From positions 1 to 35,402 of IMG/VR virus record IMGVR_UViG_3300020414_001615: 35,402 nucleotides of DNA. One strand, 5' to 3'. The notes beneath the pieces are model-generated. The model did no database searches, was not told the DNA's origin, and saw only the letters and a program-made list of their open reading frames with translations. Of the stretch, positions 10,492 to 32,887 are shown in pieces. Numbering within the stretch: the stretch's first letter is position 1; every line of letters starts with the position of its first letter. Source of the stretch: a virus (Duplodnaviria > Caudoviricetes). A program made the position numbers and the translations under genes.

Positions 10492-10495
10492 TATA

Positions 10496-12574: not shown

Positions 12575-12594
12575 GATCGTATAGTGGGTTATGC

Positions 12595-12626: not shown

Positions 12627-12639
12627 CAAGTTATGAAAC

Positions 12640-14025: not shown

Positions 14026-14115
14026 GATAAAAAAAATATGAAATTAAAGAAAAAGAGACCGCTCCCCCATAAGGGGCCAAAGAGGTCAAACGAAGATGTA
14101 GGTGAATCCCGCTTC

Positions 14116-14209: not shown

Positions 14210-14227
14210 GTCACACGTTATTTGAGC

Positions 14228-14255
14228 ATCCTAACCAAAAACTTAGGATTGTCAA
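14228..14255 (-). promoter_or_regulatory. Capsid promoter TTGACA-N16-TAGGAT overlapped by the inverted repeat ATCCTAA-N8-TTAGGAT
   Basis: Read on the minus strand between the scaffold stop and the capsid leader. Confidence 0.65.
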
Positions 14256-14265
14256 TAGGAAGATT

Positions 14266-15513: not shown

Positions 15514-15794
15514 TCTTCAATAGTTGGTGGCTGGTTTGAATTCGGTTGTTTGGTGAGTTTTTCCAAGTCGTTGAAAGCGTCCCTGTATCCTGCATACCAG
15601 CTCAGTTTATGGCTGTTCTCCTGTGGGTTTGTCCCAATAGAAGAAACAGTCGGGCCAGCGGCTTCCTTGAGGATAGCTATAGCTTGCTGGAGGGCAGGGT
15701 CAGCTAAGATATTCCTTAACTGCTCTATAGCTTTAATGTCATTAAACCAATGTTCCAGCTTAATCGGAACAGTGGGCTTTTTTTTCTGAGGCAT
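15489..15794 (-). CDS. Small portal-linked protein
   Basis: 101 aa helical ORF between portal and scaffold. Confidence 0.6.
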   Translation of the reverse strand: MPQKKKPTVPIKLEHWFNDIKAIEQLRNILADPALQQAIAILKEAAGPTVSSIGTNPQENSHKLSWYAGYRDAFNDLEKLTKQPNSNQPPTIEEWNHIQNP

Positions 15795-18022: not shown

Positions 18023-18032
18023 TAGAGGATGG

Positions 18033-18060
18033 ATGATACCTTTACCATGTTTTCTGTCAA
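18033..18060 (-). promoter_or_regulatory. Portal promoter TTGACA-N16-TATCAT
   Basis: Near-consensus hexamers, 10 nt upstream of the ATG at 18022. Confidence 0.7.
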
Positions 18061-18476
18061 GGTTTGGGGAAACAGCTATCCATGATCCGTGAAACCGGAA
18101 CATTGTGCTGTTTACCATACTTATTGCGTAATCGAACGTAGGGCTTAGTGCCCCGATAGTATTCGGTCACAATGAATGGATGCCGCCCGCGCCTGCCCCG
18201 CAAATTGCGAACCTTCCATACCGCGCCGTAAGGAGTCACGGCGTAGTCTGGGTAATCAGGAATCGGGGTGTATTTGTCGGTGGGGAGCGTTTGGGGCGGG
18301 ACGTGGAGCGTGTCATGCTGAACACGGCAAGAACGGCCATCGTCCGTCTTGACCTTAGTCTGCCATCGACCGTCAATCCATTCACGCTTCAGCCTGCGCT
18401 TTGTGTTTACATTGTAAATGTATCCACTTGAGGCGAGGGCGTAATCAGAAGCCCCCTCTATAACCTGCGCGTCCAT
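18057..18476 (-). CDS. NUMOD4-like protein with two similar half-domains and no HNH motif
   Basis: IEGASDYALASSGYIYN and IPDYPDYAVTPYGAVWK...YVRL...V.RIM..CF resemble the NUMOD4 motif. Confidence 0.55.
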   Translation of the reverse strand: MDAQVIEGASDYALASSGYIYNVNTKRRLKREWIDGRWQTKVKTDDGRSCRVQHDTLHVPPQTLPTDKYTPIPDYPDYAVTPYGAVWKVRNLRGRRGRHPFIVTEYYRGTKPYVRLRNKYGKQHNVPVSRIMDSCFPKP

Positions 18477-18484
18477 ACACGTAG

Positions 18485-18513
18485 AGGGTAACAGAAGCGG
18501 GTCGGTTCATCAA
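18485..18513 (-). promoter_or_regulatory. Possible promoter TTGATG-N17-TACCCT with extended TG
   Basis: 8 nt upstream of the ATG at 18476. Confidence 0.4.
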
Positions 18514-18520
18514 GACTTTT

Positions 18521-18659
18521 CGTGGGCACAACGTCCCCTGCAAATCGGGAATCAAAAAGTCTTCTAGAATATACATGGGCACATTGGAGAGTCCAATAAG
18601 ACCATATGTTTTACAGAAGACTTTTTGAATTGAGTTTCGCAGGGGGCAATGTGCCTACG
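18521..18659. repeat. ~140 bp imperfect inverted repeat (long hairpin)
   Basis: Nested arms CGTGGGCACA/TGTGCCTACG, CCCCTGC/GCAGGGG, TCAAAAAGTCTTCT/AGAAGACTTTTTGA and ATTGGA/TCCAAT. Confidence 0.85.
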
Positions 18660-18882
18660 CTTGCGGAAACATCATAATAAAGCCAGCCCCGTTAGGTTGA
18701 ACCCCCATGACGTTGCACTCCACCCACTCTTCCGCTTCCGCCTCTGTCATGTTGTCCCGATCCATAAATATCTTAAGAACCTTCTCGTAGCGGTAGATCA
18801 ACCGCCCACAGTCAGAAGCCCCTTCGATTGCGTCGTCCAGCCCGTCCAAAACAAGGGCATCGTCTAGTAAGTCGCCAAACAT
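18655..18882 (-). CDS. Small acidic phage protein
   Basis: DGLDDAIEG...Y..EKVL...MTEAEAEEW...N..G pattern of a recurrent phage family. Confidence 0.65.
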   Translation of the reverse strand: MFGDLLDDALVLDGLDDAIEGASDCGRLIYRYEKVLKIFMDRDNMTEAEAEEWVECNVMGVQPNGAGFIMMFPQA

Positions 18883-18888
18883 ATCTAC

Positions 18889-19137
18889 CTACGCTTTGTT
18901 TGCTCCGTACCGTGCACGTTGATTCGCGAGTATCCGCTCACGGTTCTTGAGATAATACTTCCTGTTATATTCCTTCTTTTTCTTGCGCTTACGCTCCCAT
19001 TCTTCTGGGTCGGTAACTTGGAGAATCTCGTCTTTGCGTACGAACATCTCCTTATTACGTGCATACCACTCGTGTTGATACTTGAGACGCTTCTCTTTGT
19101 TTTTCCTGTAATACTCCTGTTTCTTAGGATCTGCCAT
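18889..19137 (-). CDS. Basic helical protein with EYYRKNKE-type repeats
   Basis: Lys/Arg/Tyr-rich; promoter directly upstream. Confidence 0.6.
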   Translation of the reverse strand: MADPKKQEYYRKNKEKRLKYQHEWYARNKEMFVRKDEILQVTDPEEWERKRKKKKEYNRKYYLKNRERILANQRARYGANKA

Positions 19138-19142
19138 GCCTG

Positions 19143-19170
19143 ATGCTACTTAAAGCGGGCTAACCGTCAA
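19143..19170 (-). promoter_or_regulatory. Sigma70-type promoter TTGACG-N16-TAGCAT, ATG 5 nt after the -10, A-tract upstream
   Basis: Read on the minus strand; first promoter of the leftward block. Confidence 0.65.
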
Positions 19171-19212
19171 TTTTTTTCTCAGACACACATATGTACAGGG
19201 CGCACGCGCACG

Positions 19213-19492
19213 AAAGACGCCACCCCTAGGGGTGGCGTCTTTGATTGTTTGAAGTCATAACTTCAAACAATTAGCGTAATGCTGACTCCGTTAATCCTTG
19301 ATAACCCTTTGGGTATCAAGGATTAACGATCTTGATCCCTTATTCCTGAATCATAATTCAGGATAAGGGATCAAGGATTCACTCACCAAAGGTGAGTGTT
19401 AAGTGGTTTTCTGGGTTCAAAACTTTCAAGGAAAGTTTCACGCGCCCCGCGCATGCCATTCCTAAAAGGAATGGCGGCTCCCTTTAGGGAGC
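19213..19492. repeat. Array of at least eight adjacent palindromes/hairpins
   Basis: 19213-19242 (perfect 30 bp), 19244-19271, 19289-19328, 19331-19375, 19380-19398, 19420-19438, 19455-19475, 19477-19492. Confidence 0.9.
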
Positions 19493-19543
19493 AATGCGTA
19501 GCGCCCACAGCCTCAGAGAGGCCGGAGATCGGCTCGACTCCCA

Positions 19544-19864
19544 TTGTTGTTGATGAGTGAAACAATGATCCCAGCCGACTTGATCCTGATTGATGACCCC
19601 AGAACACCCGTTCAACTGCTACGTGAGGTTCCTTATGAAACCTTGCTCGCCAGTCAACGGTTCTGGGAAGCCAGATTAGACCGTCTCTTTGAGACGAAGA
19701 AGTATGATATCGAAGACCATGACTGTTGCTCTCCAGAGGAGGATCTCTTGGAAACTCTCGACTACATCATCTACGATGATGATTACTTCATCGATAAACA
19801 TCTCTGGTGTGAGAAATCTCGCGAAGAGATCCTATCTCTCGCACCTAGCACCTACAGCCTCTAA
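19544..19864 (+). CDS. Small acidic early protein
   Basis: Lies between repeat copies; ends EILSLAPSTYSL. Confidence 0.6.
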   Translation: MLLMSETMIPADLILIDDPRTPVQLLREVPYETLLASQRFWEARLDRLFETKKYDIEDHDCCSPEEDLLETLDYIIYDDDYFIDKHLWCEKSREEILSLAPSTYSL

Positions 19865-19891
19865 AGAGGCCAGAAATCGACTCGACTCCCA

Positions 19892-20269
19892 TTGATTATG
19901 ATGACCGAAACCACTGAAACCATGATGACCAACCTTGAAGCCAACACACACTACAACGGAGTTGTTCGTATGTTGGAAAACCTCCCTACTTCGACCCTGA
20001 TTGAAACCCTGAACATAGCTCAAGCAGAGCTTGAGCGTATGGTCTGGAGAATGCCCTGCAAAGCAGTGGAGCGCAAAATACAGGAACTGTATTTGACCTC
20101 GCTGGCCTGCATTGTCCTTCTGAAGGAAGGAATAGGCAAAGCTGCCCTGAACGACCTCCTTGATGAGTCTCCTATGGTTGGGAGGGAACTCCCAACTCAA
20201 CGCCTAGTGCGCTGGGATCTGGAGATAGGAGAGATCCTATCTCTCACACCTAGCGCCTACAGCCTCTAA
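19892..20269 (+). CDS. Small early protein
   Basis: Lies between repeat copies; starts MMTETTETM, ends EILSLTPSAYSL. Confidence 0.6.
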   Translation: MIMMTETTETMMTNLEANTHYNGVVRMLENLPTSTLIETLNIAQAELERMVWRMPCKAVERKIQELYLTSLACIVLLKEGIGKAALNDLLDESPMVGRELPTQRLVRWDLEIGEILSLTPSAYSL

Positions 20270-20302
20270 AGAGGCCAGAAATCGACTCGACTCCCATTGT
20301 AA

Positions 20303-20509
20303 TTGATGACCGAAACCACTGAAACCATGACCTACACCGTTAAGCTCTACGAGAAAACCGCGATGACCACTTGGAGAAAGTTCGACAATCGCGAAGACGC
20401 TGACTTCTACGCCAACTTTCACGCCAAGAATCACGCTAAAGTTACCGTCGAAGAAGACAAACCGCTTCCCTTCTCCGAAGAAGACGAAGCCTTTTACTAC
20501 AGTTGCTAA
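20303..20509 (+). CDS. Small early protein
   Basis: Starts MMTETTETM within the third repeat copy. Confidence 0.6.
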   Translation: MMTETTETMTYTVKLYEKTAMTTWRKFDNREDADFYANFHAKNHAKVTVEEDKPLPFSEEDEAFYYSC

Positions 20510-20527: not shown

Positions 20528-20935
20528 ATGACTGAAACCATGAACATGAACCCTGCCCTTTGTGTCACCCTTGGTGACTCCCGCCCAGCCAGCCTGCTGG
20601 CTCAGGAGGTTTCTCACGAAACCTTGAACCACAGTCTCTTCCTACTGGAAGAGGATACCCTCTTCTCTGAAGAGGACATGGATGAAATCAACGTATCCCT
20701 TTGGGATGCTGTTGATGAAGGCTCCGACTTCCTTGTGCGCCAAGCTCGTAGAGCTTTCGAGGAGGAAGAGGACAACCACAATGAGATCTCTGATCTCATA
20801 AGCCGGATCGAGGAAGCTCTCGACATACAGCTACATAGCCAGTGTGAGGAGCATGAGGAGTGTGAGGGCAGCAACACGCCTTCCATTCACCCATTGCACC
20901 CCGCACCTTGGAACCGAACTACCGTAGTCCAGTAA
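20528..20935 (+). CDS. Highly acidic early protein
   Basis: Glu/Asp-rich; N-terminus (D.R..LL..EV..ETL) resembles that of 19544-19864. Confidence 0.6.
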   Translation: MTETMNMNPALCVTLGDSRPASLLAQEVSHETLNHSLFLLEEDTLFSEEDMDEINVSLWDAVDEGSDFLVRQARRAFEEEEDNHNEISDLISRIEEALDIQLHSQCEEHEECEGSNTPSIHPLHPAPWNRTTVVQ

Positions 20936-21017
20936 CAGCTACGCTGGAAAAAAACTTTAAGAAAAAGCTTGAGGGAAATGCCCTTATCTGCTTTACTAGT
21001 AAACATCACAAGCCGAA
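20916..21017 (+). promoter_or_regulatory. Early module 1: inverted hairpin core, A-tracts, TTGAGG-N17-TTTACTAGTAAA
   Basis: Similar to the modules at 24625, 26492 and 28776. Confidence 0.7.
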
Positions 21018-21057
21018 TCGGCTGAACCTAACCAACCAACCAACACACACTACCGTT

Positions 21058-21747
21058 ATGCAAACCACCACTGTTCTTGCTACCGTCAACACCGATGCCC
21101 TCCGTCAGCTCAGCACCAACGAGCTGAAGACACACACAAAGGAAGCCGCGATGGAAGTCGCTCGTTCCAATGAGAAGGGGGCCAAATGGCTCGGCGTATG
21201 CCGTGCTCAACTTGCCAACCTTGGCGAGACTAGCGAAGCTACCTTCAAACTTGTTCGGACTTCCCTTGTAAAGGGAGGCATGGATGAGAAGCGGGCCAAG
21301 TCTGCTACCAACAACGCCAACGGTCACATGAATCTGGCACACTTCCTCCTGAAGGAGGATGGTGCGACGATTTGCGAGAAGAGATTCTTCGCCGTCTCTG
21401 TAAGAGACGCTAAGGCCGTTGCTTCTACCCTCCATAGAGGGGGAGAGGATGCCATCAAGGACTTCAACAAGTTGAGTCTCCGCAAAGGGAAGCTCTCCCG
21501 TAAGGGACTCGACAACTTCCTCCCTGCCAAGGAGGCTCCGGTCAAGGAGGCTCCCGCCAAGGAGGAGAAGCCCGCAGACTCTGCACCTTCCAATCCTGAA
21601 GAGTCCAGCGAGACTCCGATGAATCCGGTGCTGTCGTCAGTTCAGATGGTAGCTGCCGCTATCAAGACGCTCCGTAAGGAGCTTCCGAACTTGTCCGGTA
21701 AGGACAAGGAGACTGCCATTGCCGCTCTCAGTGAGCTGATTGGCTAA
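21058..21747 (+). CDS. Basic early protein, possibly DNA-binding (start revised to MQTTTV)
   Basis: ATG follows module 1 and an AC-rich leader. Confidence 0.65.
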   Translation: MQTTTVLATVNTDALRQLSTNELKTHTKEAAMEVARSNEKGAKWLGVCRAQLANLGETSEATFKLVRTSLVKGGMDEKRAKSATNNANGHMNLAHFLLKEDGATICEKRFFAVSVRDAKAVASTLHRGGEDAIKDFNKLSLRKGKLSRKGLDNFLPAKEAPVKEAPAKEEKPADSAPSNPEESSETPMNPVLSSVQMVAAAIKTLRKELPNLSGKDKETAIAALSELIG

Positions 21748-21791
21748 CCCCCTAAAGGGGGAGGCTGGACTACGGTAGTTCAGTCTCCCCC
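21748..21791 (+). repeat. Hairpin repeat copy GGGGGAGGCTGGACTACGGTAGTTCAGTCTCCCCC
   Basis: Directly after a stop codon; preceded by CCCCCTAAA. Confidence 0.9.
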
Positions 21792-21818
21792 ACCTAACCC
21801 ATTAACATCCTGAGCATT

Positions 21819-22031
21819 ATGCAATACCTGTTTAACACACTCACCTTCGGCGGTCTTACCGCTACCTTCCTAGCTACTCTCACAATGTGGGATAATCCCT
21901 CAATCCTGAACCTGCTTCTAGCACAAGGATCGCTTACACTGACTGCATGGTCTTCCATTACGGCTGACCACATAAAGATGCGTAAGAAAACCGAGCAACA
22001 CATTGCTGCTGCAAAGCAGCACCGACTCTAA
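21819..22031 (+). CDS. Small membrane protein
   Basis: Two hydrophobic segments and a basic tail. Confidence 0.55.
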   Translation: MQYLFNTLTFGGLTATFLATLTMWDNPSILNLLLAQGSLTLTAWSSITADHIKMRKKTEQHIAAAKQHRL

Positions 22032-22053
22032 ACCATAAAACTAATCTACGATT

Positions 22054-22701
22054 ATGACTTCTGATCTCTTCAATTACTTCAACGGAAAATACGTGGACTG
22101 GACCTTTCGGTCCTCATCCGCAGCCCGTGCTAGGCTTAAGGCATGGGATCAGAGGCACGAGTCCCAGCCTAGCTGGGAGGAGGACTTCTATGACTACGAA
22201 AGTAGTGAGCAAGTCTGGGACGAAGTGACCTGTGGTCAGAGTGTCATGGGAGTCGATGACTGCGGCATTCTCCCAGAGGAGAAGTGGGAATACATCAAGA
22301 ACCCCAGTCTTTCTACGAAAGAAATCTGGCAACTCTTCGCTGATGAATCAGCCGATGAGCGGGCGGACAGGTATGGTCATCGGTATGATGACGTCGAGGA
22401 GTGTTGGGACTACTACGCCGACGACTACGACGACAACTACTACTACGACGACTACGACGAATACCATCCTTGCGACTACGAGTGGTATGAGTCGGACCAT
22501 CCCTCCAGTATATTCTTTTGCCATGAAATGGAAAAAGAATCGGAGAAGTATATCGAAGACTGCAAAGTCTGGAGCGAAACCGTGCAAGAGATTGCATGGT
22601 TTGATGAGTGCGAAATAGTGGATGGGGTTCCCCATCCACCTGAACTGAAACCTGAACCCCGCCCCCTGATCTCCGATCACCACTATCGGAAAGCTGCCTA
22701 A
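22054..22701 (+). CDS. Very acidic, Tyr/Trp-rich protein
   Basis: DYYADDYDDNYYYDDYDEY tract. Confidence 0.6.
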   Translation: MTSDLFNYFNGKYVDWTFRSSSAARARLKAWDQRHESQPSWEEDFYDYESSEQVWDEVTCGQSVMGVDDCGILPEEKWEYIKNPSLSTKEIWQLFADESADERADRYGHRYDDVEECWDYYADDYDDNYYYDDYDEYHPCDYEWYESDHPSSIFFCHEMEKESEKYIEDCKVWSETVQEIAWFDECEIVDGVPHPPELKPEPRPLISDHHYRKAA

Positions 22702-22742
22702 CCCTTTAACACACAACCAATAACACGAAAGGAACACACACT

Positions 22743-23249
22743 ATGCAAAAATTATCTGACCTGATTAAGAATCCATCCGGCCTCGACTCGCTCGACAATT
22801 ACGCTGGAGAAATCCCCGAAGACAAGTGGCACGTAGTGCTAACCCAAAGTCGGGACTGTGAGATACTCACCAAGTCCAACTGGGCCGTTGCTCTGGAAGA
22901 GCTGGGCGGGGAGAGTGAGCACGTTGAGATCCACCGCTTCGGTCACTGGGCTTGCGGCTGGTGGGAAGCCTTGTGCGTAGCCAAGGACAGTGAGGCTTGG
23001 GAAACCGCGAAGGAAATACATGATTCCCTGAGCGACTACCCTGTCTTGGACGAACAGCATTTCTCTGAAATGGAAACGGAGGAAGCTGACCGTATCTGGA
23101 GTGACTGCTTCGCTCCAAAGGAGAGAGTCGAACACCTTCGTTCCGAAGGAGGGACGGAGAACTTCAACGGCTTTGCCGACCTCATGCAATGTGTGAGGGG
23201 AGCCTTCGCTCCCTTCACTAACAACGGATACTACGGCATCATTGGATAG
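22743..23249 (+). CDS. Acidic phage protein
   Basis: SRD...SNW, HWACGW.E and LSDYPVLDE motifs of a recurrent phage family. Confidence 0.7.
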   Translation: MQKLSDLIKNPSGLDSLDNYAGEIPEDKWHVVLTQSRDCEILTKSNWAVALEELGGESEHVEIHRFGHWACGWWEALCVAKDSEAWETAKEIHDSLSDYPVLDEQHFSEMETEEADRIWSDCFAPKERVEHLRSEGGTENFNGFADLMQCVRGAFAPFTNNGYYGIIG

Positions 23250-23325
23250 CCCCCTAAAGGGGGAGGCTGGACTACGGTAGTTCAGCTTCCCCTGAATCCT
23301 GAATCCTGAATCCTGAATCCTGAAT
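23250..23325 (+). repeat. Hairpin repeat copy followed by (CCTGAAT)5
   Basis: CCCCCTAAAGGGGGAGGCTGGACTACGGTAGTTCAGCTTCCCC, then heptamer tandem at 23291-23325. Confidence 0.9.
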
Positions 23326-23329
23326 AGAT

Positions 23330-23653
23330 ATGACCTTTCACGAACCTGTAACCTGCCGCGATGGCTACCGTGTTTCCGTACAAGCTAGCAATGGGCACTA
23401 CTGCGAGCCTAGATATAGCGATGACCCCCTCGAATATCGAGAGGTAGAACTTGGCTACCCTTCGGCCCCCGACCCTCTCCTTGAGGGCTGGGCAGAGGAC
23501 GAGAGCTGCCCTACCGATACCGTATATCCCTATGTTCCTGTTCACCTTGTGCGGGAACTCCTCGCAAATCATGGCGGGGTGGAGTCGGGCACCGTGCCCT
23601 ACGGTGTATTTGAAGACGCAAGCGGACAACTGTTGCTACAGTTACTCCGTTAA
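23330..23653 (+). CDS. Phage protein
   Basis: C.DG...SVQAS..HYC.PR, VELGYPS and TVYPYVP motifs of a recurrent phage family. Confidence 0.7.
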   Translation: MTFHEPVTCRDGYRVSVQASNGHYCEPRYSDDPLEYREVELGYPSAPDPLLEGWAEDESCPTDTVYPYVPVHLVRELLANHGGVESGTVPYGVFEDASGQLLLQLLR

Positions 23654-23676
23654 ACACACACACACACACACACACT

Positions 23677-24243
23677 ATGAACAACACATATATTATCCGT
23701 CTTTCTGACGGACAAGATACCGTTATCGAATTACCTAAACCGAAGGTAGAAAAAGACGGAAAGGTATGGGTCTTCGACCACGAAGGCGAACAATATACCC
23801 TGCACCATGATGCCTTCTTCATGGATCAATGGACCTTGGGCTTCGCTCAATACTATGAGTGGTATGGCTCCGAAGGTTTCGGAGAGGTCGGCAAGCCAGA
23901 GCATGGCAGATACAAGCCGAAGGGAGGGGTAGAGATGATCCTCTTTGAGACGGAACACGAAGTGTTACGGAACGGGAGTGACCTTGTGCATAAGTTGCAA
24001 GAGCAACTCAACAAGGAAGGTCGTTTCACGAAGTATGATTTCCGAAGGACAAACATGCACGAAGCATCATGGACTACGGGATGTTCTGCATCGGGGCAGA
24101 GGTGCGTCTTCCCCGAAATCCTAGAGGACAATTCCCTCCCATCTCTGATGCCATACGACAGACCTTGGGAGATCGTATGTAAGAACGGCAAGTTCTTTCA
24201 CCTCGACCGTGGCACTAGCCACCTAGCTGAGAGCAAGATCTAA
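23677..24243 (+). CDS. Hypothetical early protein
   Basis: 188 aa ORF after an (AC)n leader. Confidence 0.6.
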   Translation: MNNTYIIRLSDGQDTVIELPKPKVEKDGKVWVFDHEGEQYTLHHDAFFMDQWTLGFAQYYEWYGSEGFGEVGKPEHGRYKPKGGVEMILFETEHEVLRNGSDLVHKLQEQLNKEGRFTKYDFRRTNMHEASWTTGCSASGQRCVFPEILEDNSLPSLMPYDRPWEIVCKNGKFFHLDRGTSHLAESKI

Positions 24244-24292
24244 CCAATCGACACGTCATTGGAACGTGTCGATTTAACCTGAACCAATCGAC

Positions 24293-24469
24293 ATGAAACG
24301 TAAACGCAAACCCCTGCCAAGCAACTCGCTTGAGCAGAGGAACATGACTCGTCATGCCATGCCGCCGCCAACCTCGCGACACAAGGATCGCAAGAAGGTA
24401 GCGCGTAAGCAGGCGTGTCGTAAACCACTGAACCTGAACCATGAAAACAATTCAACTATCCCTCACTGA
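24293..24469 (+). CDS. Small very basic protein, 58 aa
   Basis: Manually translated MKRKRKPLPSNSLEQRNMTRHAMPPPTSRHKDRKKVARKQACRKPLNLNHENNSTIPH; CCTGAA upstream. Confidence 0.5.
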   Translation: MKRKRKPLPSNSLEQRNMTRHAMPPPTSRHKDRKKVARKQACRKPLNLNHENNSTIPH

Positions 24470-24638
24470 TAGTGCCTTCGACAAGATCAAGACTGAAGTC
24501 TTTTGTGCCGCGCTAGCTCAAAATGCCTCCGGCCCCCACGCCGCATGGAAACTGGTGCTCGACGCAATGGAGCGGGGAGACACTGAGAAGACCATCCGAA
24601 CGAAAGAGGACGTGAACCCTGACCCTGAACTACGGTAG
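24441..24638 (+). CDS. Small hypothetical protein
   Basis: CTGAACCTGAACC leader; stop codon lies inside the hairpin core. Confidence 0.6.
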   Translation: MKTIQLSLTDSAFDKIKTEVFCAALAQNASGPHAAWKLVLDAMERGDTEKTIRTKEDVNPDPELR

Positions 24639-24743
24639 TCCAGTAACAGCTACGCTGGAAAAAACCTTAAGAAAAAACTTGAGTAATCAGAAGTTATCTG
24701 TTTTACTAGTAAACATCACAAGCCGAAAGGCAAACCAACCAAC
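24625..24743 (+). promoter_or_regulatory. Early module 2: hairpin core plus promoter-like repeat
   Basis: 24658-24743 is identical to 26527-26612 (86 bp). Confidence 0.75.
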
Positions 24744-24760
24744 CTGAATCCTGAATCGAT

Positions 24761-25153
24761 ATGTCAAACCTGACCGAATGCCAACAGAAGAACGTCACCC
24801 TTGCAGGTGGCATGTATTTTGCGACCAACTGCTTTAGCTGGTCGCTGGGTAAAACCCCGTGGGAAGCTATGGGAAACCTCGACCTGAATTATCAGGGCAC
24901 GATCCCCAAAGTGGGGACCAAGAACTACAAGAAGTGGACTGGTGATGTCTCGCTTTACTACATCCCTGACGCGGAGAAGTGGGGAGGTGTTACACGATAC
25001 ACCCCAGTCGATGACAACAATGTCCCGATTGGCATCCTGCTCTACGGGACAAGCCCCGATAGTGAGCACAACCAGAAGATCGCCCACCGTCACATGACGG
25101 AGGGTGCGGATGCTGTGCTGTCCGATCCTGAGAATCTTCCCATCAGATACTAA
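24761..25153 (+). CDS. Hypothetical early protein
   Basis: Follows module 2; ends at a hairpin repeat. Confidence 0.6.
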   Translation: MSNLTECQQKNVTLAGGMYFATNCFSWSLGKTPWEAMGNLDLNYQGTIPKVGTKNYKKWTGDVSLYYIPDAEKWGGVTRYTPVDDNNVPIGILLYGTSPDSEHNQKIAHRHMTEGADAVLSDPENLPIRY

Positions 25154-25192
25154 CCCCGAAGGGGAGGCTGGACTACGGTAGTTCAGCCTCCC
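25154..25192 (+). repeat. Hairpin repeat copy
   Basis: CCCCGAAGGGGAGGCTGGACTACGGTAGTTCAGCCTCCC. Confidence 0.9.
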
Positions 25193-25221
25193 TCCCTTAA
25201 CTTGAACCTGAGAATTGAATT

Positions 25222-25572
25222 ATGAAAATGACCCTATCAACTAGCCATGCTGCCGACCTACTCTTCCGCGATGAGTATGGTGGGTGGAGTTATGCGGCAG
25301 CGAACGCCATGTGTGAATACCTTGAACAACTGGAGGAGGATCTGGGCGAGGACATTGAGTTCTGCCCTGTCGCAATCCGCTGTGACTACAGCGAGTATGG
25401 CTCGCTCGACGAAGCCATCACTGAGCTTATCGGAGATCCCGTGGACATCGACGAAGAGTGGACACCTGAGAACCTAGCAACAGGCGACCACGATGAAGAC
25501 ATGCAGATGCACCTGCAAGAGCTGACGACCGTGATCCCGTTTAACGGGGGCGTGATTGTCCAGTCCTTCTAA
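25222..25572 (+). CDS. Acidic phage protein, candidate antirestriction/DNA mimic
   Basis: WSY...A..EYLE.LEED.G..IE..PVAIRCDYSEY motif; very few basic residues. Confidence 0.6.
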   Translation: MKMTLSTSHAADLLFRDEYGGWSYAAANAMCEYLEQLEEDLGEDIEFCPVAIRCDYSEYGSLDEAITELIGDPVDIDEEWTPENLATGDHDEDMQMHLQELTTVIPFNGGVIVQSF

Positions 25573-25601
25573 CCTGAAACCTGAAACCTGAAACCTGAAC
25601 C

Positions 25602-25931
25602 ATGAAAATAAACATTATCCATGTTGCCTTCGATGGCGACCCTGACGAAGTAGTTTTTTCTTACGATGACCTTGGCACAACAAGGGGAGATCGTGACGTA
25701 TTGCAAGCGTGTGCTAGGGCATTCCGTATGTTCAACGCACCATTGGAATTGCTCGATGATGAGGATGCGCTGATTGCTATTGCATACCGCACACAGAATC
25801 TCCGGTCTCTCTCCGTCGGGGACATTGTAGAAGTCCATCACCCAAGTGTTCGCAGTCCCCAGAGGTGGGTGTGTGAACCCTCTGGATGGAAAAGGTCTGA
25901 ACTTGAACCAACTAACCTGAAACCTGAATAA
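25602..25931 (+). CDS. YodL-like domain protein
   Basis: F..FN...RSLSVGDIV...W.C.P.GW motif. Confidence 0.6.
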   Translation: MKINIIHVAFDGDPDEVVFSYDDLGTTRGDRDVLQACARAFRMFNAPLELLDDEDALIAIAYRTQNLRSLSVGDIVEVHHPSVRSPQRWVCEPSGWKRSELEPTNLKPE

Positions 25932-26327
25932 ATGAATAACACAGCAAACAACCTGCAAGACCTCCTGTCCCTTCGGGGATGCGGAGAAGAAACCTTCGGG
26001 CAACTCAAGCGCAACGTGTATAAATACACATCATGCGGTGCTTGGATAATTGAGACCGAATACGGCGTGGGGCTTGGCTCTATTGTCGAGGGCGTAGACG
26101 AAGGCACCGAAACTCACGCGCTAAACTACCCATTCACAATCGACCAATTCCAAGACGCTTTACAATCTGTCGAGGACGAAGCCGATGAGATATGGAAAGC
26201 CACGCATGGCTGCGAGGATTGCCACGACCATCCGCAAGCGGATGAGTGGGGCAACGAGAACGAGTTCGGCGCATGGCCTATCAATCCCGACTGCAAGACA
26301 TGCAAGGGAGAGGGGGCGATCATATGA
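25932..26327 (+). CDS. Acidic protein with a C-terminal CxxC...CxxCxGxG zinc finger
   Basis: CEDC and CKTCKGEG; YKYTSCG and GSIVEG motifs. Confidence 0.65.
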   Translation: MNNTANNLQDLLSLRGCGEETFGQLKRNVYKYTSCGAWIIETEYGVGLGSIVEGVDEGTETHALNYPFTIDQFQDALQSVEDEADEIWKATHGCEDCHDHPQADEWGNENEFGAWPINPDCKTCKGEGAII

Positions 26328-26491
26328 GCCAACCCCAGATCCCCTACATAATGCTCGATGGCGAAGAGATCCGTCTCGACAACGTCGAGTTCTTGAACGT
26401 CGAAGAGGACATCATCAACGGACGTGACCTGATTACGTTCAAGCATGAGGGCGAGACACATCAGTCGTATGTGGTTCATCGCCCCTGCTAA
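26324..26491 (+). CDS. Small hypothetical protein (MSQPQIPY...)
   Basis: ATGA overlap with the upstream stop; ends at a hairpin core. Confidence 0.55.
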   Translation: MSQPQIPYIMLDGEEIRLDNVEFLNVEEDIINGRDLITFKHEGETHQSYVVHRPC

Positions 26492-26612
26492 CTGGACTAC
26501 GGTAGTCCAACCCTACCTACGGTAGAGAAAAAACCTTAAGAAAAAACTTGAGTAATCAGAAGTTATCTGTTTTACTAGTAAACATCACAAGCCGAAAGGC
26601 AAACCAACCAAC
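26492..26612 (+). promoter_or_regulatory. Early module 3: perfect core TGGACTACGGTAGTCCA plus promoter-like repeat
   Basis: Shares the 86 bp identical segment with module 2. Confidence 0.75.
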
Positions 26613-26631
26613 ACAAACCTGAACCTGAATT

Positions 26632-27339
26632 ATGAATATGCTCAACAGCATCCGCAGCCTCGCTGCCAAAGTCAGGAGTGCCGTAGTCACGGTGCTCGCC
26701 GCCCCATTCAAGCCGCTCGTGAAGCGGATTAACACATACATTGACCAGCGTTTGCCCAGTGCGAACGAGGTCGCTGAGTTCGTAGGCATCGACAATGTTG
26801 CTGCCCACATCACAGACCACCCCGATTTTCGGGAGTCGTTGGTGAACCTGATCGAGGTCGATGCCAGTGACGTTGCTGAACACTTCGATCCATCAGACAT
26901 CGCTTACGAGATCGACACCGACAATGTAGCCGGAGCGATGGATCACCAAGAGGTCGCCAGTTACATGGACAGCTACGAGATCGCCGCTGCCGTAGAGGTG
27001 GACCCCGCCGATGTAGCGGAACACATCGAGGTGGATCTCGATGAGATCGCAGAGAAGGTCGAGGTGGACTACGCGGAAGTAGCGGAGCACATCGAGGTCG
27101 ATCACGACGAAGTAGCGGAGCGTGTCTCCGATTACATCGACCGTGACTGTATAGTCGAGTCTGTCCAAGATGGTCTGGACTACGATTCCATCGCCTCGAT
27201 TGTCGCTGACAGTATCCGCGAGGAGGTTGTCGAAACCGTCAAGGCTGACTCGCTCGACACTGACGAGATCGTGGACACCATCCGCCAGCAGGTTCTCGAA
27301 TCGCTCGACGGTATGTCCTACACCCTCACGATTAGCTAA
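26632..27339 (+). CDS. Acidic repeat protein (EVAEHIEVD-type repeats)
   Basis: Basic amphipathic N-terminus, then many 9-13 aa acidic repeats. Confidence 0.7.
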   Translation: MNMLNSIRSLAAKVRSAVVTVLAAPFKPLVKRINTYIDQRLPSANEVAEFVGIDNVAAHITDHPDFRESLVNLIEVDASDVAEHFDPSDIAYEIDTDNVAGAMDHQEVASYMDSYEIAAAVEVDPADVAEHIEVDLDEIAEKVEVDYAEVAEHIEVDHDEVAERVSDYIDRDCIVESVQDGLDYDSIASIVADSIREEVVETVKADSLDTDEIVDTIRQQVLESLDGMSYTLTIS

Positions 27340-27346
27340 CCCTTTC

Positions 27347-27614
27347 GCTCCCTCTCTCCATGCCGTTCCGAACCAACATCTCCTCTGCACGTTTCATGGT
27401 CGGCTGTTATGCGCCGACTGCAAGAGATGCAGGTCAACCGCTGGCCATCGTGCCATGTAGGTAAATGCTCTGGCAGGGATCACCTTGCTAACTGCCTGAC
27501 GGCAATGAAACTGGAGAGAGGGAGCACCAACCCTTTCGCCTCGTCTCCGTAAAATAACCAGCGTCTGCCCTTTATATTGCTGTTCAGGGCAGCGTGTACA
27601 GACGGAGGCGAGGC
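27347..27614 (+). ncRNA. Candidate structured RNA(s): two fold-back domains
   Basis: Perfect 14 bp closing stem 27347-27360/27512-27525 with internal stems; 13 bp stem 27538-27550/27602-27614. Confidence 0.5.
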
Positions 27615-27644
27615 ACCTTTAACCCCAAACCTGAATCCTGAATT

Positions 27645-28769
27645 ATGAATAATACCTCAATGGAATATCCAATCGTCTCCTCTTCGGAGGAGCTGGGCGA
27701 ACATGCCCAGATGTGCCAGACCGATGGCACCATCCTGTTCATCGTCGGCAAAGGCGGTGACGGTAAGACTACCGTGACGAAGGAAGTCATCTGCCCTGCC
27801 CTTGGTCTCAAGGGAATCGAGGGTGAAGACTTCTTCACCATCAACGCAAGTGGCTCCGCTCCCTCCGATGTGAGGGGTGCTGGTGTCCCTGACTTGGAAG
27901 CACGAGAGATGTGGTTTGCCCAGCCAGCACACTGGCCTACCCGTGAACGGATTGGCGACCGACCCTGTGTCCTGCTCCTTGATGAGCTGCCTGACTGGGA
28001 CGTGTCCCTCCAGTCCCTCTGTCGCTCACTGTTCAATCCGAACGGGCCGCGACCGATGATCGGAGATCACGAGCTGTCGGAGAACACCTTTATCGTGGTG
28101 ACTGGCAATCGTCGTATCGACGGTAGCCGCTCCGCTATCCCGTCCTGTCCGTTCGTCACTCGATGCACGTCCCTCATCTGGCAACCTACGCTGGATGGAT
28201 GGCTCGACTGGGCAGCGGACAAGGGCTATGCAAGTAGCCCTGTCTACACCTTCCTCACCTACAACGGACTCGACCAGTTCGGCAGGGAGGGAGACTTCTT
28301 CTCCCCTCCAGTCCCGCAGCCTTGGGACGGTAGTCCCCAGCCATGTCCCCGTGAGTGGGAGGCATGCTGCAAGCTGACTGTCGAGGGTGCCCCTGAGTGG
28401 AGTGACAGTGTGCTCCGCAAGAGCATCGAAGGGAAAGTCGGGAAGGCGGCTGGCAAAGCCAGTTACGCTTTCATCCAGACTGTAGCCAAGCAACTCCCGT
28501 TGCTGGACAAGATCAAGGCAGGGGATGAAGAGCTGCCCAGCAATGAGGCTGACCAGTTTGCTCTCACCCACTGTGCCCTGCGGCAAGCAAGCCGCGACAG
28601 TAGCAACGATCCAGAGGCGGCTGTCGCCAGTGGTGCTCTGGACTGGCTGGTGGAGCGAGTGCTCCTCCCTGCCCGTAACGAGATTACGGAGTGGGGCTTT
28701 AAGACTGCCTTGGCAGTTGGAATCCCGCTCGACCAACACCCCCGCCGCGTAGATTTACAAGGTGTGTAA
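27645..28769 (+). CDS. MoxR/CbbQ/dynein-related AAA+ ATPase
   Basis: Walker A GKGGDGKT, Walker B LLLDE, sensor-1 TGNR, DVRG.P and PREWE motifs. Confidence 0.85.
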   Translation: MNNTSMEYPIVSSSEELGEHAQMCQTDGTILFIVGKGGDGKTTVTKEVICPALGLKGIEGEDFFTINASGSAPSDVRGAGVPDLEAREMWFAQPAHWPTRERIGDRPCVLLLDELPDWDVSLQSLCRSLFNPNGPRPMIGDHELSENTFIVVTGNRRIDGSRSAIPSCPFVTRCTSLIWQPTLDGWLDWAADKGYASSPVYTFLTYNGLDQFGREGDFFSPPVPQPWDGSPQPCPREWEACCKLTVEGAPEWSDSVLRKSIEGKVGKAAGKASYAFIQTVAKQLPLLDKIKAGDEELPSNEADQFALTHCALRQASRDSSNDPEAAVASGALDWLVERVLLPARNEITEWGFKTALAVGIPLDQHPRRVDLQGV

Positions 28770-28775
28770 TTGGTA

Positions 28776-28888
28776 TCCCTCCTACGGAGTTGCTGGACTA
28801 CGGTAGTTCGCTCTCCGTAGGAGGGAAAAAACCTTAAGAAAAAACTTGAGAAACAATACACTATCTGTTTTACTAGTAACCATCACAA
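28776..28888 (+). promoter_or_regulatory. Early module 4: core inside a 14 bp outer stem plus promoter-like repeat
   Basis: TCCCTCCTACGGAG / CTCCGTAGGAGGGA flank CTGGACTACGGTAGTTC; TTGAGA-N17-TTTACTAGTAA. Confidence 0.75.
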
Positions 28889-28912
28889 CTAACCCAAACC
28901 TGAACCTGAATT

Positions 28913-29782
28913 ATGCAAGACCTGAACATTATTAACTCGATCATCGAGGCCCGTTACAAGACGGGTAAACCCGCCATGTCACAGAAGCTGGAGAAACAGC
29001 ATGAACGACTCATCGCTTACTCTGGTGCCCGTGAAGATGCGGTCGATGCGCCTCGCTCCAAGCTCTTCGCTAAGGGTGGGCCTATCACCAAAGCCCGTGC
29101 CATCATCAACAACTTTGGCACATACATCCGCAAGAAGGGAATGCCCGTCCCCGACAAGGTGGGCTGGACATTCCAGAAGGTGGACGAAGTGGACTCAATC
29201 CAAGAGGAGTTCGACAAGCAACGTGACGACCTCGACCACCTGTTTGAAGAGATTCGTGATAGATACGACTCGCTCAAGAACGAGGGGGAGAAACGTCTGG
29301 GGACACTTCGTGACGAAGTTCAATACCCTGCTGTCGAAGACTTCCTCAGTGAGTTTGAGTTCGGACTCCGTTGGAGTGGCACCTCTACTAACATCAGCGA
29401 GACTAACGTCTTAGGTGCTGTTAGTAAGGAGACTGCGGCTCGCATTCGATCCAGCCAACAGACTACCGCTGACACACTCAAGGAGGCACACGGTCATCTT
29501 GTCCGTGATGCTGTCAAGGAGATGTCAGGTGTGGTCGAGGCTCTGCTGGAAGGCAAGCGGCTCCGACAGGAGAGGCTCGACAAACTGGCCAAGGCCAGTG
29601 AGGAGATCCACCGTAAGAACTGGCTCCAACTGCCTGAGCTTACAACACTGGTAGGCACACTCCGTGACCTGACTGTAGACACTAGCGAGATCCCAACCGT
29701 TGAACTGCGGAGGGAACACGCTAAGAAGATAGACTCCGCTAGAGCAAAGGCCGAAGAGACTCTGGCTGCGCTGGGAGTTTAA
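28913..29782 (+). CDS. Helical protein, DUF3150-like partner of AAA/vWA modules
   Basis: 289 aa helical; YP.VE....F.F motif; lies between the ATPase and the vWA gene. Confidence 0.55.
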   Translation: MQDLNIINSIIEARYKTGKPAMSQKLEKQHERLIAYSGAREDAVDAPRSKLFAKGGPITKARAIINNFGTYIRKKGMPVPDKVGWTFQKVDEVDSIQEEFDKQRDDLDHLFEEIRDRYDSLKNEGEKRLGTLRDEVQYPAVEDFLSEFEFGLRWSGTSTNISETNVLGAVSKETAARIRSSQQTTADTLKEAHGHLVRDAVKEMSGVVEALLEGKRLRQERLDKLAKASEEIHRKNWLQLPELTTLVGTLRDLTVDTSEIPTVELRREHAKKIDSARAKAEETLAALGV

Positions 29783-29797
29783 CCTGAAACCTGAATT

Positions 29798-31447
29798 ATG
29801 AAATACACAGCATACGAATTTGATCTCTCACGAGATTCCCTTCTGGGCCGCGCCATGCGGCGGGTCCAGAAGTATGCTCCGTTTGCTTACATGAAGCTCC
29901 TGTCACTGATGTGGGTAGCCACATCCGACACGAATTACGGAGCAACCGATGGACGCAAGCTCTTCCTGAACCTTCTAGGTTTGGACAAGATCAAGCAGAC
30001 CTCTGACCCTGTAGGGTATGCTGCTTTTCTGCTCCTGCATGAAGCCCTGCATGCCCTGCTGTCCCATGCTCTCAGACTTCGTGGTCTCCGTGACCAGAAG
30101 CTGGCGAACATTGCGGCAGACTACATCATCAATGCGATGATTGCATCCATCAACCGCAAGGCGAGAGCAGGTGGAGCAAAGCGCGATCCGTTCCCTATGA
30201 TCGAAGGTGTGCTTCTCGATGAGAAGTTGAGTGCCGATCACCATGTGGTCAAGCTCTACAACATCCTCGATGCCAAGCAGGACGAAGAGCAAGACCCCGC
30301 CTTCGACACTGGTGACGACACTGACGACACTGACGACACTGACGATACCGAAGGTGCCACTGGTGATGACACTGGTGATGACACTGGTGATGACACTGGT
30401 GATGACACTGACGACACCGAAGGTGACACTGGTGATGACACTGGTGATGCCACTGACGACACCGAAGGTGACACTGGTGATGACACTGGTGATGACACTG
30501 GTGATGACACTGGTGATGCCACTGACGACACCGAAGGTGACACTGATCCAAGCCTTGAAGACTTGCTTAACGAGGACACCAGCAATGGGGATAGTGACGA
30601 CACTGGTGATACCGAAGGTGACACTGGTGATACCGAAGGTGACACTGACGATACTGGTGACACTGGTGACAGTGGTGACACTGGCGGCAAGTCAGGTGAC
30701 GAAGCTATCCTCGACGACTTCGTCGGCACACCTACTGGATCAGACCTGCAAGAACCTGCCCTCGATGAGGGTGAGACCTTAGAAGAGTTCGACTCCTCTG
30801 TCGAAGAGTCTAACGAACAGATCACCTTGCAAGAGCAACTCGCTCAGTCCGCTGGGCTGGGTGACGATGACTCTGGCTTCCGCCAACTGGTGAAGCATCG
30901 CAAGCAGTGGCAGGGACTTGACTGGGGATCGTATGTCCGTGAATGGATGACGAGCCGTATGGCTGATAGCTGGAACAAGCCAGTCAATATCCCTACGTTC
31001 GTTACTCGTGGCATCGTCGAAGATGACCGCGAGTCAATGAACATGGGAGAGCTGGGCGTTGTCGTTGACACGTCCTGCTCCGTCCCCCCGTCCATTGTAT
31101 CGGAGATGCTGGAGGCTGTGCAGGAAGCACTCGACACCTTATCCCCAAAGGCAATCCACCTGATTAGCTCCGACCACAAGGTGCAGGAGTATCAGGTATT
31201 GGAACGCGGCGACACCGTGCCCGAATCATTGAAGGGTGGAGGTGGAACCGTATTCCGAAAGGCATTCCAATTCGTAGAGGATGAGATGCTAGACCTCGAT
31301 GGTCTGATCTTCCTCACAGATGGAGACGCCTTCGACTGGGATCAGGTGCATGAGCCATCCTACCCAGTCCTCTGGCTACACTACGAGGATTACAAAGACC
31401 CGACTACCTACCCGTTCGGTCAAGTAGTAGAGGTGAACAGGGTATGA
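29798..31447 (+). CDS. DUF2201-like protein: HEXXH metallopeptidase-like domain, acidic linker, vWA domain
   Basis: ATDG, HEALH, NIAADY.IN; MIDAS DTSCS, GGGT and LTDG. Confidence 0.85.
   Translation: MKYTAYEFDLSRDSLLGRAMRRVQKYAPFAYMKLLSLMWVATSDTNYGATDGRKLFLNLLGLDKIKQTSDPVGYAAFLLLHEALHALLSHALRLRGLRDQKLANIAADYIINAMIASINRKARAGGAKRDPFPMIEGVLLDEKLSADHHVVKLYNILDAKQDEEQDPAFDTGDDTDDTDDTDDTEGATGDDTGDDTGDDTGDDTDDTEGDTGDDTGDATDDTEGDTGDDTGDDTGDDTGDATDDTEGDTDPSLEDLLNEDTSNGDSDDTGDTEGDTGDTEGDTDDTGDTGDSGDTGGKSGDEAILDDFVGTPTGSDLQEPALDEGETLEEFDSSVEESNEQITLQEQLAQSAGLGDDDSGFRQLVKHRKQWQGLDWGSYVREWMTSRMADSWNKPVNIPTFVTRGIVEDDRESMNMGELGVVVDTSCSVPPSIVSEMLEAVQEALDTLSPKAIHLISSDHKVQEYQVLERGDTVPESLKGGGGTVFRKAFQFVEDEMLDLDGLIFLTDGDAFDWDQVHEPSYPVLWLHYEDYKDPTTYPFGQVVEVNRV
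30304..30684 (+). repeat. In-frame tandem repeats of GATGACACTGGT / GACACCGAAGGT units (DDTG/DTEG)
   Basis: Visible 9-12 nt periodicity with higher-order duplications. Confidence 0.9.
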
Positions 31448-31533
31448 ATTACCTTGTCGCTATCGTGGCGGGGATCGCTATTGCAGTGATCCCTGCCCTA
31501 CTCCTCGTTGTCCTAGTCTTCTTATTCACTTAA
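31444..31533 (+). CDS. 29 aa single-TM peptide
   Basis: MNYLVAIVAGIAIAVIPALLLVVLVFLFT; ATGA overlap with the vWA stop. Confidence 0.5.
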   Translation: MNYLVAIVAGIAIAVIPALLLVVLVFLFT

Positions 31534-31562
31534 CCAACTAACCAACTAACCAACTAACAACC

Positions 31563-31949
31563 ATGTTTAACATATTCAAACGCAAACAACCCAACAAGAA
31601 CGCAATGTTCACCCTTCAGCCATACAGATACCTAGGCCAGTGGGTCTTCGATGACGAGACTCGCGGCTTACAAGCCGAGGCTTTTGTATGTGGTATGTCT
31701 GAAATTATCGACGATGTCCTCGTAGCGAACGGCATTGATCCTGTAGATGTGCAGGATGGATTCCGCCTGACCTTCTCGACAACCCCCTTCCCTGACCACA
31801 CTCACTCGCTGACATGGGACAGGAAGGGCGAAGGAGGTAACTGGTATCACTGCGACCAGACTAAAAGGTCTGGCTGGCTGTGCCCTGCTCTGTTCCTCTA
31901 TTACCCAGAGGCTCCCAAGAAGCTGTATGCACGAGCTGACATCTTCTAA
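31563..31949 (+). CDS. DUF6717-like protein
   Basis: PY...WVFDD..GL..E.FV.G, GGNWY and GWLCPAL..Y...P..LY motifs. Confidence 0.7.
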   Translation: MFNIFKRKQPNKNAMFTLQPYRYLGQWVFDDETRGLQAEAFVCGMSEIIDDVLVANGIDPVDVQDGFRLTFSTTPFPDHTHSLTWDRKGEGGNWYHCDQTKRSGWLCPALFLYYPEAPKKLYARADIF

Positions 31950-31959
31950 CTAACCTACG

Positions 31960-31988
31960 GGGGGCTGGACTACGGTAGTTCAGCCCCC
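31960..31988 (+). repeat. Hairpin repeat copy
   Basis: GGGGGCTGGACTACGGTAGTTCAGCCCCC. Confidence 0.9.
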
Positions 31989-32054
31989 TGTTAAAATTAA
32001 ATTTGAACGAATCCTGAACCCTGCTGTCTAAGACGGCACAACCTTAACACAACA

Positions 32055-32629: not shown

Positions 32630-32887
32630 ATGAAAACTGAAGACAACAAACCAAAGCGGGGGAGACCCCGCCTCTATTCTGACGAAGAGCGAATCGAACG
32701 AGCGAGAGAATCCGTGAAAAGATCCAACAGGAAACACAACCACACCACCATCGCAATACGTGGCGAAGACATCGACAAGTTTAGAAAACTCAGAGAGGCC
32801 GAAAGCAAAAAGCTAGGATTCGATTTAAGTAACCAGCAATTCTTCAAGCTCCTCTTCAGGAACTGGGAGGAGAACAACAAAGGATAA
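32630..32887 (+). CDS. Small basic DNA-binding protein (AT-hook-like KRGRPR plus possible ribbon-helix-helix)
   Basis: KPKRGRPR; TTIAI strand followed by two helices. Confidence 0.55.
   Translation: MKTEDNKPKRGRPRLYSDEERIERARESVKRSNRKHNHTTIAIRGEDIDKFRKLREAESKKLGFDLSNQQFFKLLFRNWEENNKG

Follow-up and report, generated by a model that had tools for sequence, protein, structure and literature searches.

Eight dispersed palindromes in the early arm of a phage are likely operators of its first early protein

We analyzed a 35,402-nt stretch of phage DNA (the window; positions 1 to 35,402 of IMG/VR record IMGVR_UViG_3300020414_001615, a 59%-complete virus record) that carries eight copies of a palindromic core at the ends of its small early genes. 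These palindromes are likely duplex-DNA operators of the first early protein (229 aa; gene at 21058..21747, plus strand), a predicted homodimer that would bind them and likely damp the early arm. Apart from a few model systems, little is known of how lytic phages that use the host RNA polymerase shut down or pace early regions that are large and change fast. Here, both a site and a candidate reader are available, in four natural spellings, so the proposal is testable without culturing the phage. If true, it would add a new family of DNA-binding proteins with orthogonal operator sets and would explain how newly acquired genes come under immediate control.

The 19-mer CTGGACTAC-N-GTAGTTCAG occurs at eight places, starting at 20914, 21765, 23267, 24625, 25168, 26492, 28793 and 31965, all within the plus-strand block of small early genes. 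Searching for the core with up to three mismatches returned 15 strand-matches against 0.00 expected, a number that none of 100 shuffles reached. All eight cores start between −21 and +24 nt relative to the end of the upstream stop codon. Positions 1-19000 of the window hold no core at up to three mismatches of the 19-mer (one unrelated three-mismatch 17-mer lies at 4764), nor do the replication, terminase and giant-gene stretches of the near-identical strains L212, L292, L153 and L155. None of the 19 T-run terminator-like sites in the window coincides with a core. These results bear out the original prediction for this DNA, which described eight dispersed copies overlapping or shortly following stop codons, lacking a U-tract and missing from the late block. 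Seven of its positions stand, and the first copy begins at 20914 rather than at about 20916. It also described outer stems that pair, which is correct for the copies at 21765, 23267, 25168, 28793 and 31965 but not for those at 20914, 24625 and 26492, which have no arms.

Core 2 (21757..21791, core proper 21765-21783, plus strand) lies 18 nt past the stop of the first gene and has G-rich and C-rich arms. Core 3 (23267..23285) and core 5 (25161..25193, core proper 25168-25186), both on the plus strand, are also armed; the gene 3' of core 3 varies among strains, and L039 and L101 have a gene inserted right after the right arm of core 5. Core 8 (31958..31989, core proper 31965-31983, plus strand) has outer arms as well. 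A small second hairpin (C-TAC-G triloop or C4-loop-G4) adjoins most cores, at 20936-20946, 24647-24657 and 26513-26525 and in the left flanks of cores 2, 3, 5 and 8. Its loop is inverted in the relatives L033, L087 and L093, which suggests micro-inversions.

Site and protein are linked by their co-occurrence. Among 53 records, the pattern AMTAC-S-GTAKT (written from the window, G040 and G055) has 8, 5, 6 and 5 copies in the window's record (G000), G040, G054 and G055; it occurs once or twice in six of the other 49 and is absent from 43. A profile of the first protein matched 2 of 51 relatives, G040 and G054. G040 encodes a homolog at E 3e-24, and its dyad reads TRTAATAC-S-GTATTAYA. The complete G054, found by the protein profile, has six core copies, five of them in the early arm as CATACTAC-G-GTAGTATR, and G055, which was fetched solely by way of a homolog with 42% identity, carries RAACTAC-S-GTAGTT five times without mismatch; both outcomes had been predicted blind. 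At 5-8 copies, the TAC-S-GTA type is found in exactly the four of 53 records that encode a homolog of the first protein. Among the window's 30 early open reading frames (ORFs), that at 21058 alone is common to G040, G054 and G055 and to no other early arm searched.

This co-occurrence does not follow the phylogeny of the 774-aa portal-like protein, a label that comes from its position; no family matches this protein. The protein has 54 loci, which outline a family of roughly 55-68-kb phages, and it matched no annotated phage. The four carriers are not one portal-like clade: a quick tree of 42 rows forces three changes, and a one-clade test on 17 of those rows, also by quick tree and for a group chosen ahead of any look at the trees, gave p-AU (approximately unbiased test) of 1.4e-5. 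The window's nearest portal relatives, G004 and G005, have neither the first protein nor the dyad. In phages of 66-73% portal identity, conservation of the central 11 bp is limited to those with the first protein.

The composition of the core points to a site read as DNA. We reduced 71 copies to 47 non-redundant ones by flank class and spelling, removing duplicates and copies with Ns or short flanks. Eleven of the central 17 positions are invariant, and the symmetric pair 4/16 is the only one that varies freely (G·T 19, A·C 16, G·C 11, A·T 1). A search allowing up to four mismatches recovers the identical set, so the invariance is not merely an artefact of a strict pattern. Because A·C would be avoided by an mRNA stem and is harmless to the half-site TG(A/G)ACTAC, the core appears to behave as a duplex-DNA site, not an RNA stem. 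Arms of at least 6 pairs flank 25 of the 47 copies, whereas re-pairing of the flanks gives 7.7 +/- 1.9 (25 is reached in 0 of 1000); the other 22 are armless. All 19 G·T copies are armed and 14 of the 16 A·C copies armless; the plus strand is the more stable in 24 of 25 armed copies and in 1 of 22 armless ones. Promoter-proximal copies number 17 of 47, of which 13 are armless. The original proposal that sequence and structure are both selected therefore fits the armed subset (25 of 47) and not the armless copies, and a purely RNA-level site is not supported, given the armless copies and the 16 of 47 with A·C on the mRNA strand.

The first protein has the build of a plausible dyad reader. Its predicted structure (mean predicted local distance difference test, pLDDT, of 78 with 18 sequences) is all-helical from residue 6 and comprises a helical basic N-domain (residues 1-158; 27 K+R, 17 D+E), a disordered acidic linker and a two-helix C-domain. 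Homodimer prediction gave a symmetric complex with a score of 0.82, against 0.00 for the best of three controls, with contact agreement of at least 82% and pLDDT of at least 77; among solved pairs 20 of 30 attain the mark used for this score, and among single chains 1 of 23. The predicted homodimer agrees with a role as dyad reader but is no evidence that DNA is bound. The family is small, with 19 representatives at E ≤0.001, none usefully named. A sequence search of PDB with the first protein gave nothing, and its Atlas matches, at 0.90, were to unnamed clusters only. The original prediction called for a dedicated trans-acting factor, with a dimeric-protein operator among its options, and the protein-dyad co-occurrence and predicted homodimer support it. 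We found no paper on this element or family in literature searches whose coverage excluded subscription journals.

Four of the cores stand directly before promoter-like units, a feature missing from the original prediction. An 86-nt repeat (family D3) with A-tracts, TTGAG and TTTACTAGTAAA lies directly 3' of the cores at 20914, 24625, 26492 and 28793. Core 1 (20914..20932) has inverted spelling and no arms, and its center is 46 bp before the −35-like hexamer of the putative unit P1 (20948..21033, plus strand), which has A-tracts, TTGAGG at 20969, TTTACTAGTAAA and a non-canonical −10; the first early gene lies behind P1, between cores 1 and 2. Core 4 (24625..24643), an armless copy of A·C spelling with its arms exchanged and the central G kept, is 45 bp before the −35-like hexamer at 24679 in P2 (24658..24743, plus strand). 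Core 6 (26492..26510), an armless, perfect 17-bp dyad with a small second hairpin after it, lies 47 bp ahead of the hexamer at 26548 in P3 (26527..26612, plus strand), which P2 matches exactly over 86 nt. Core 7 (28776..28826, core proper 28793-28811, plus strand) has 14-bp outer arms and sits between the ATPase gene and P4 (28825..28910, plus strand). From core center to the −35-like TTGAG the distance is 44-47 bp at the four window sites, 35 in G055 and 49-50 in G054. The −10 region, TTTACTAGT, was not picked by a sigma-70 scan though TTGAG is present; the sigma-70 consensus may not be the host's.

Tandem 7-bp leader repeats (families D4, D5 and D10) precede many early start codons. Their 6-mer has 40 matches in the early arm versus 8 in the late block, with strain-variable copy number. 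No Shine-Dalgarno motif is evident by eye, and they may serve as recombination homology.

We propose the following mechanism. On entry, host RNA polymerase would fire the A-tract/TTGAG promoters, and the first protein would accumulate, dimerize and occupy its half-sites TG(A/G)ACTAC. At the four promoter-proximal sites, bound protein would crowd the upstream (UP) contact region just before the A-tracts, and occupancy at P1 would be negative feedback on the first protein's own promoter. Protein bound at gene-end sites would act as a roadblock to read-through. In about half of the copies, the G/C-rich arms would form a hairpin on the mRNA strand that likely aids pausing, termination or 3'-end stability. 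Recombination between core copies would move genes and spread sites. We favor repression over activation, as there is a site at the first protein's own promoter and half of the sites have no promoter; this preference is the weakest step of the mechanism.

Several observations weigh against this account. Since the copies share descent, the copy counts (n = 47) are descriptions and not independent events. The dyads do not overlap the −35 or −10, so repression is not the sole possible outcome and activation is also possible. The conserved GGMD-helix of the first protein lies partly inside the predicted dimer interface, so the DNA-reading surface is not pinned down. The protein has no family match, with no ParB Pfam among 17 members, and Foldseek returned no structure from PDB or BFVD at E ≤0.001. 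The KorB DNA-binding domain (1r71; Z 4.9, root-mean-square deviation (rmsd) 4.4, 111 aligned, rank 30) and Spo0J (1vz0; Z 4.0, rmsd 5.1, 105 aligned) match below noise level; both matches cover the entire N-domain and are a lead only. First proteins of other lineages are of like size and position, and hhalign places them in no single family; apart from a weak C-terminal match, they are not detectably homologous. The lineage with CTCCC-type dyads has no evident candidate reader. Finally, the ATPase, 28913 and von Willebrand factor A (vWA) proteins of G054, G055 and G040 are the window's three best matches. The early arm is thus passed on as one block, so that the co-occurrence amounts to three or four lineages and the reader could be some other early product.

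That last point feeds an unlikely alternative, in which the first protein reads the dyads for other ends (activation, organizing or protecting incoming DNA, or blocking superinfecting kin) or the reader is another early protein or a host protein. The fixed 44-47 bp spacing in the window's clade would suit an activator, as would the non-canonical −10. The spacing differs in G055 and G054. However, half of the sites have no nearby promoter, and an activator would be needed at P1 before its own synthesis. For another early reader, the ATPase, 28913 and vWA genes do travel in the same block, but dyads are present without this trio in G016/G019 and in G010/G020/G033. G011 and G012 have the same ATPase/28913 subfamily and yet lack both the first protein and the dyad, which favors the first protein as reader over ATPase/28913. 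Between G034 and G051/G052 the ATPase branch length is 0, but the dyads differ and the first proteins are strongly diverged (E about 1e-4). A host reader is disfavored, as no host genome carries the motif as a repeat.

It is rather less probable that the core is an RNA-only element of the PeSL (promoter-early stem-loop) type (a terminator, stabilizer or RNase III-type site), with its sequence homogenized by recombination and no DNA-reading protein. The combination of stem-loop, A-tract and promoter and the G/C arms do match PeSLs, whose stem-loops acted as transcription terminators in Escherichia coli (PMC2839356); the armed copies favor the mRNA strand, and junctions change often at cores. 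The armless and A·C copies argue against it, as does a core kept at 28793, a junction that never changes. Also against an RNA-only element, the central 11 bp are kept only alongside the first protein. An Rfam scan gave two weak rows, neither at a core.

Early gene order is strongly variable between relatives, and the original prediction had offered a recombination site as one option. In 16 longer contigs, changed junctions made up 24 of 33 observations at core-bearing junctions versus 25 of 61 at core-free ones (nominal p 0.005), a contrast inflated by the fetching of relatives by motif. Counted by junctions changed at least once, the figures are 7 of 8 and 12 of 16 (p 0.63). The core 7 junction is unchanged in 5 of 5 relatives and the core 8 junction changed in 7 of 7. 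Among contigs of runs found independently of the motif, there are joints that end at cores 4 and 6, and three runs have core joints. These joints come from Logan contigs compared with part of the early arm; no circle-type joint between cores was among those listed, which carries no weight either way. Flanks of core copies are chimeric left and right. Crossovers of armed copies lie 5-8 nt to the right of the core, those of armless copies at its left edge. A seven-base half-site look-alike (25897..25903, plus strand), at the end of ORF 25602-25931, is fused to core 6 in L039, L101 and run X4, which places the crossover inside 7 nt. In L066, a gene sits between two hairpin copies of core 8.

From the contrast in junction changes, these core-ending joints, the flanked gene in L066 and the chimeric flanks, one could see in the core a target of site-specific recombination (integron-, Xer- or HUH-like) and in the early arm a cassette array. 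We regard this as very unlikely. Crossovers are scattered, with no fixed base, and swaps end elsewhere as well as at cores. Searches for phage-encoded tyrosine, serine and Y1 recombinases found none in five records, including the complete G054, with positive controls detected, and the RuvC-like resolvase and exonuclease of the replication block could serve ordinary recombination. What stands of the original option is that swaps often end at cores; core swapping is likely a by-product of short-homology recombination between repeats, with no dedicated recombinase system. Recombination of this kind among repeats has been described for PeSLs (PMC2839356, PMC4122927) and for Cluster O dyads (PMC4351075), as far as the accessible parts of those papers go.

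Sites of the attC type have RYYYAAC/GTTRRRY ends; such ends surround core 8 only, and the idea was dropped. REP-type (repetitive extragenic palindromic) elements carry GTAG feet, which are wrongly arranged in the core (central, tail to tail).

The original prediction named two candidate binders, of which 21058-21747 tracks the motif. The other is an 85-aa ribbon-helix-helix-like protein (32630..32887, plus strand) with an RGRP motif and a ribbon-helix-helix-like C-half, and it is highly improbable as the reader. Its model matches TraM, MazE and NikR (Z 5.1-5.8, rmsd 1.1-2.8, 39-49 aligned) and it is 78-100% conserved in the window's clade, but it is restricted to close relatives, with no homolog in G040, G055 or the complete G054, which share the dyad center, nor in L069 of the window's clade. 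Its profile found no homolog among 744 early ORFs and, in 49 records, only weak matches to 400-aa ORFs or one 103-aa frame.

We give next to no credence to an N4-like arrangement in which the hairpins are promoters of a virion RNA polymerase, an option suggested by the gene for a giant protein (over 4,600 aa) next to the early arm and by small C-GTA-G triloop hairpins adjoining several cores, because the parts of the giant protein read hold no polymerase family or catalytic motif, cores lie in both orientations and host-type −35/A-tract units are present. A search with PF00940 matched 0 of 5 records and detected no positive control either. The giant protein, which has no Pfam match, is probably an internal virion protein. 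An ORF at 34673-35383 (minus strand) is its C-terminus, and it continues in L152 (7997-19960) and L153.

The wider phage family shares the arrangement and varies the spelling. When 38 early arms were searched de novo, 18 yielded dispersed dyad families, two more yielded weak ones and 18 yielded none. Spellings include ACTAGTG-NN-CACTAGT, GGTATA-ACCRAC-TATACC, GGTTAAC-RCCC-GTTAACC, TAACAAG-AG-CTTGTTA, TAACAAC-TCA-GTTGTTA, CTCCC-TTTWAAA-GGGAG, TTAAACGTTTAA and the TAC-S-GTA type. Placement at gene ends is alike, centers occur in both orientations, and some dyads lie within G/C arms; several are too A/T-rich for good hairpins. The dyad spelling is lineage-specific and the arrangement conserved. 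In several phages with TAACAAC-type dyads (L316-L320), the first early gene (F31) has one dyad within its coding sequence, as expected under autoregulation. The early arm of L315 (G040) also has a separate, long unit that includes several dyads and is present in three copies, one of them inverted (at ~570-750 and 5245-5290).

A broader picture is possible, though we hold it tentatively and doubt that all of it applies. The early arm may carry an exchangeable module made of a first protein from an undescribed dimeric DNA-binding family and a self-spreading dyad array at every gene boundary. Such a module might silence or gate all of the accessory arm, silence superinfecting kin of the same spelling (immunity without lysogeny) and give homology for the entry of pre-wired genes, and it might be widespread in uncultured aquatic phages.

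Near-identical records extend the window with a replication block (RuvC-like resolvase, helicase, exonuclease, PolA and primase), a terminase-like gene and the giant ORF, inside which a gap remains, as no closing overlap was found among these records. Sequencing runs containing the stretch are of marine DNA, and no RNA run was listed as containing it, which says nothing either way on transcription. The sole cellular record is one marine bin titled Acidimicrobiaceae, which may be mis-binned. Bin G001 (contigs C64 and C107) has a second related phage contig, with 72-82% identity to window positions 2687-8577, beside the near-identical one. In genome_contigs the 17-mer was found in 27 stretches, 23 of which are single copies without window homologs; the remaining four lie on two contigs of the same phage inside one bin. 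In metagenome contigs the 17-mer has 107 loci, 25 of them encoding window homologs, and the relatives came from these. An origin from a host REP or a known RNA family is thus not supported, since no cellular genome holds many copies of the motif and no Rfam match falls on a core. A scan of viral contigs gave no match to the exact 19-mer and 17 single-copy loci for the 17-mer, none with window homologs, and viral-contig scans with the ATPase, alignment A1 and P0049 found no relatives, in a collection from which near relatives may be missing.

Several neighboring features complete the description of the window. A trio comprising a MoxR-like ATPase, a 289-aa protein and a DUF2201 vWA/metallopeptidase lies at 27645-31447; the ATPase and vWA families are present in 18 of 38 early arms, and the vWA gene has a variable-length Thr/Gly/Asp repeat. 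An HNH-like endonuclease gene (18057-18476) directly precedes the portal-like gene, and its G055 homolog is on the opposite strand. Dense inverted repeats at 19140-19500, between the late and early arms, are a candidate genome end, packaging or origin region. A second repeat family, with three copies of 47 nt (19517-19563, 19865-19911 and 20270-20316) and a 101-nt duplicate at 94% (19825-19925 / 20230-20330), bounds three small ORFs at the start of the early arm, likely a genome-end or entry region.

Four published systems resemble parts of the arrangement; their features are given here from the accessible portions of the cited papers. The 17-bp dyads of Cluster O mycobacteriophages (PMC4351075) are, like the cores, invariant, dispersed, without fixed orientation, in many cases intergenic and absent from the host. 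For both, a dimeric protein has been proposed as the binder, and recombination between copies gives an occasional indel. Cluster O genomes have >30 sites genome-wide, a third of them in coding regions, and in the text available their reader is not identified. Here, in contrast, the sites are found only at the ends of early genes, and one half of them form part of mRNA hairpins. Four of the window's eight stand before promoter-like units, and there is a candidate reader that follows the spelling from lineage to lineage.

The PeSLs of T4-type phages (PMC2839356, PMC4122927) share with the window a repeated stem-loop followed by an A/T-rich tract and a promoter or promoter-like unit in a hypervariable early region, as well as polyG/polyC stems and gene gain or loss near the repeats. 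The combination of stem-loop, A/T tract and promoter-like unit is found at 4 of 8 window copies. Indels near repeats are found too, and are not exclusive to cores (the junction counts above; the L066 duplication). The T4-like context is absent: this is an about 60-kb PolA phage whose portal-like protein matches no annotated phage. PeSL stem-loops are sequence-variable and read as RNA terminators, with no invariant dyad or cognate protein described in the accessible text, whereas here the dyad is invariant and often armless and the −10 is not TATAAT.

With the operators and stoperators of Cluster A mycobacteriophages (PMC9283540), our proposal shares one phage protein acting at many promoter and short-gap sites. 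That system is proposed to block both initiation and elongation, and its specificity diverges between relatives, as here. Stoperators are asymmetric 13-mers that work in an orientation-dependent manner with a monomeric helix-turn-helix (HTH) repressor in temperate phages. Here, by contrast, the site is symmetric and occurs in both orientations, the predicted dimer belongs to no known family and no integrase was found.

The OB operators of KorB (ParB family) on plasmid RK2 (PMC2680271, PMC13768133) are, like the cores, dispersed palindromes of odd length with a central G/C, located upstream of a −35 or far from promoters. The sequence differs, however, the fold match is below significance and the first protein has no N-terminal CTP-binding ParB domain, its model being all-helical and no ParB Pfam being found in 17 members. 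Integron-type arrays differ in turn by their cognate recombinase, of which none was found in five records, and by a single fixed crossover point, which the window's family lacks. Taken together, the system would function in the manner of a dispersed operator array superimposed on PeSL-like cassettes, and it departs from each class on a defining feature; its new part is an unassigned and probably dimeric first early protein that tracks the spelling of the dyad.

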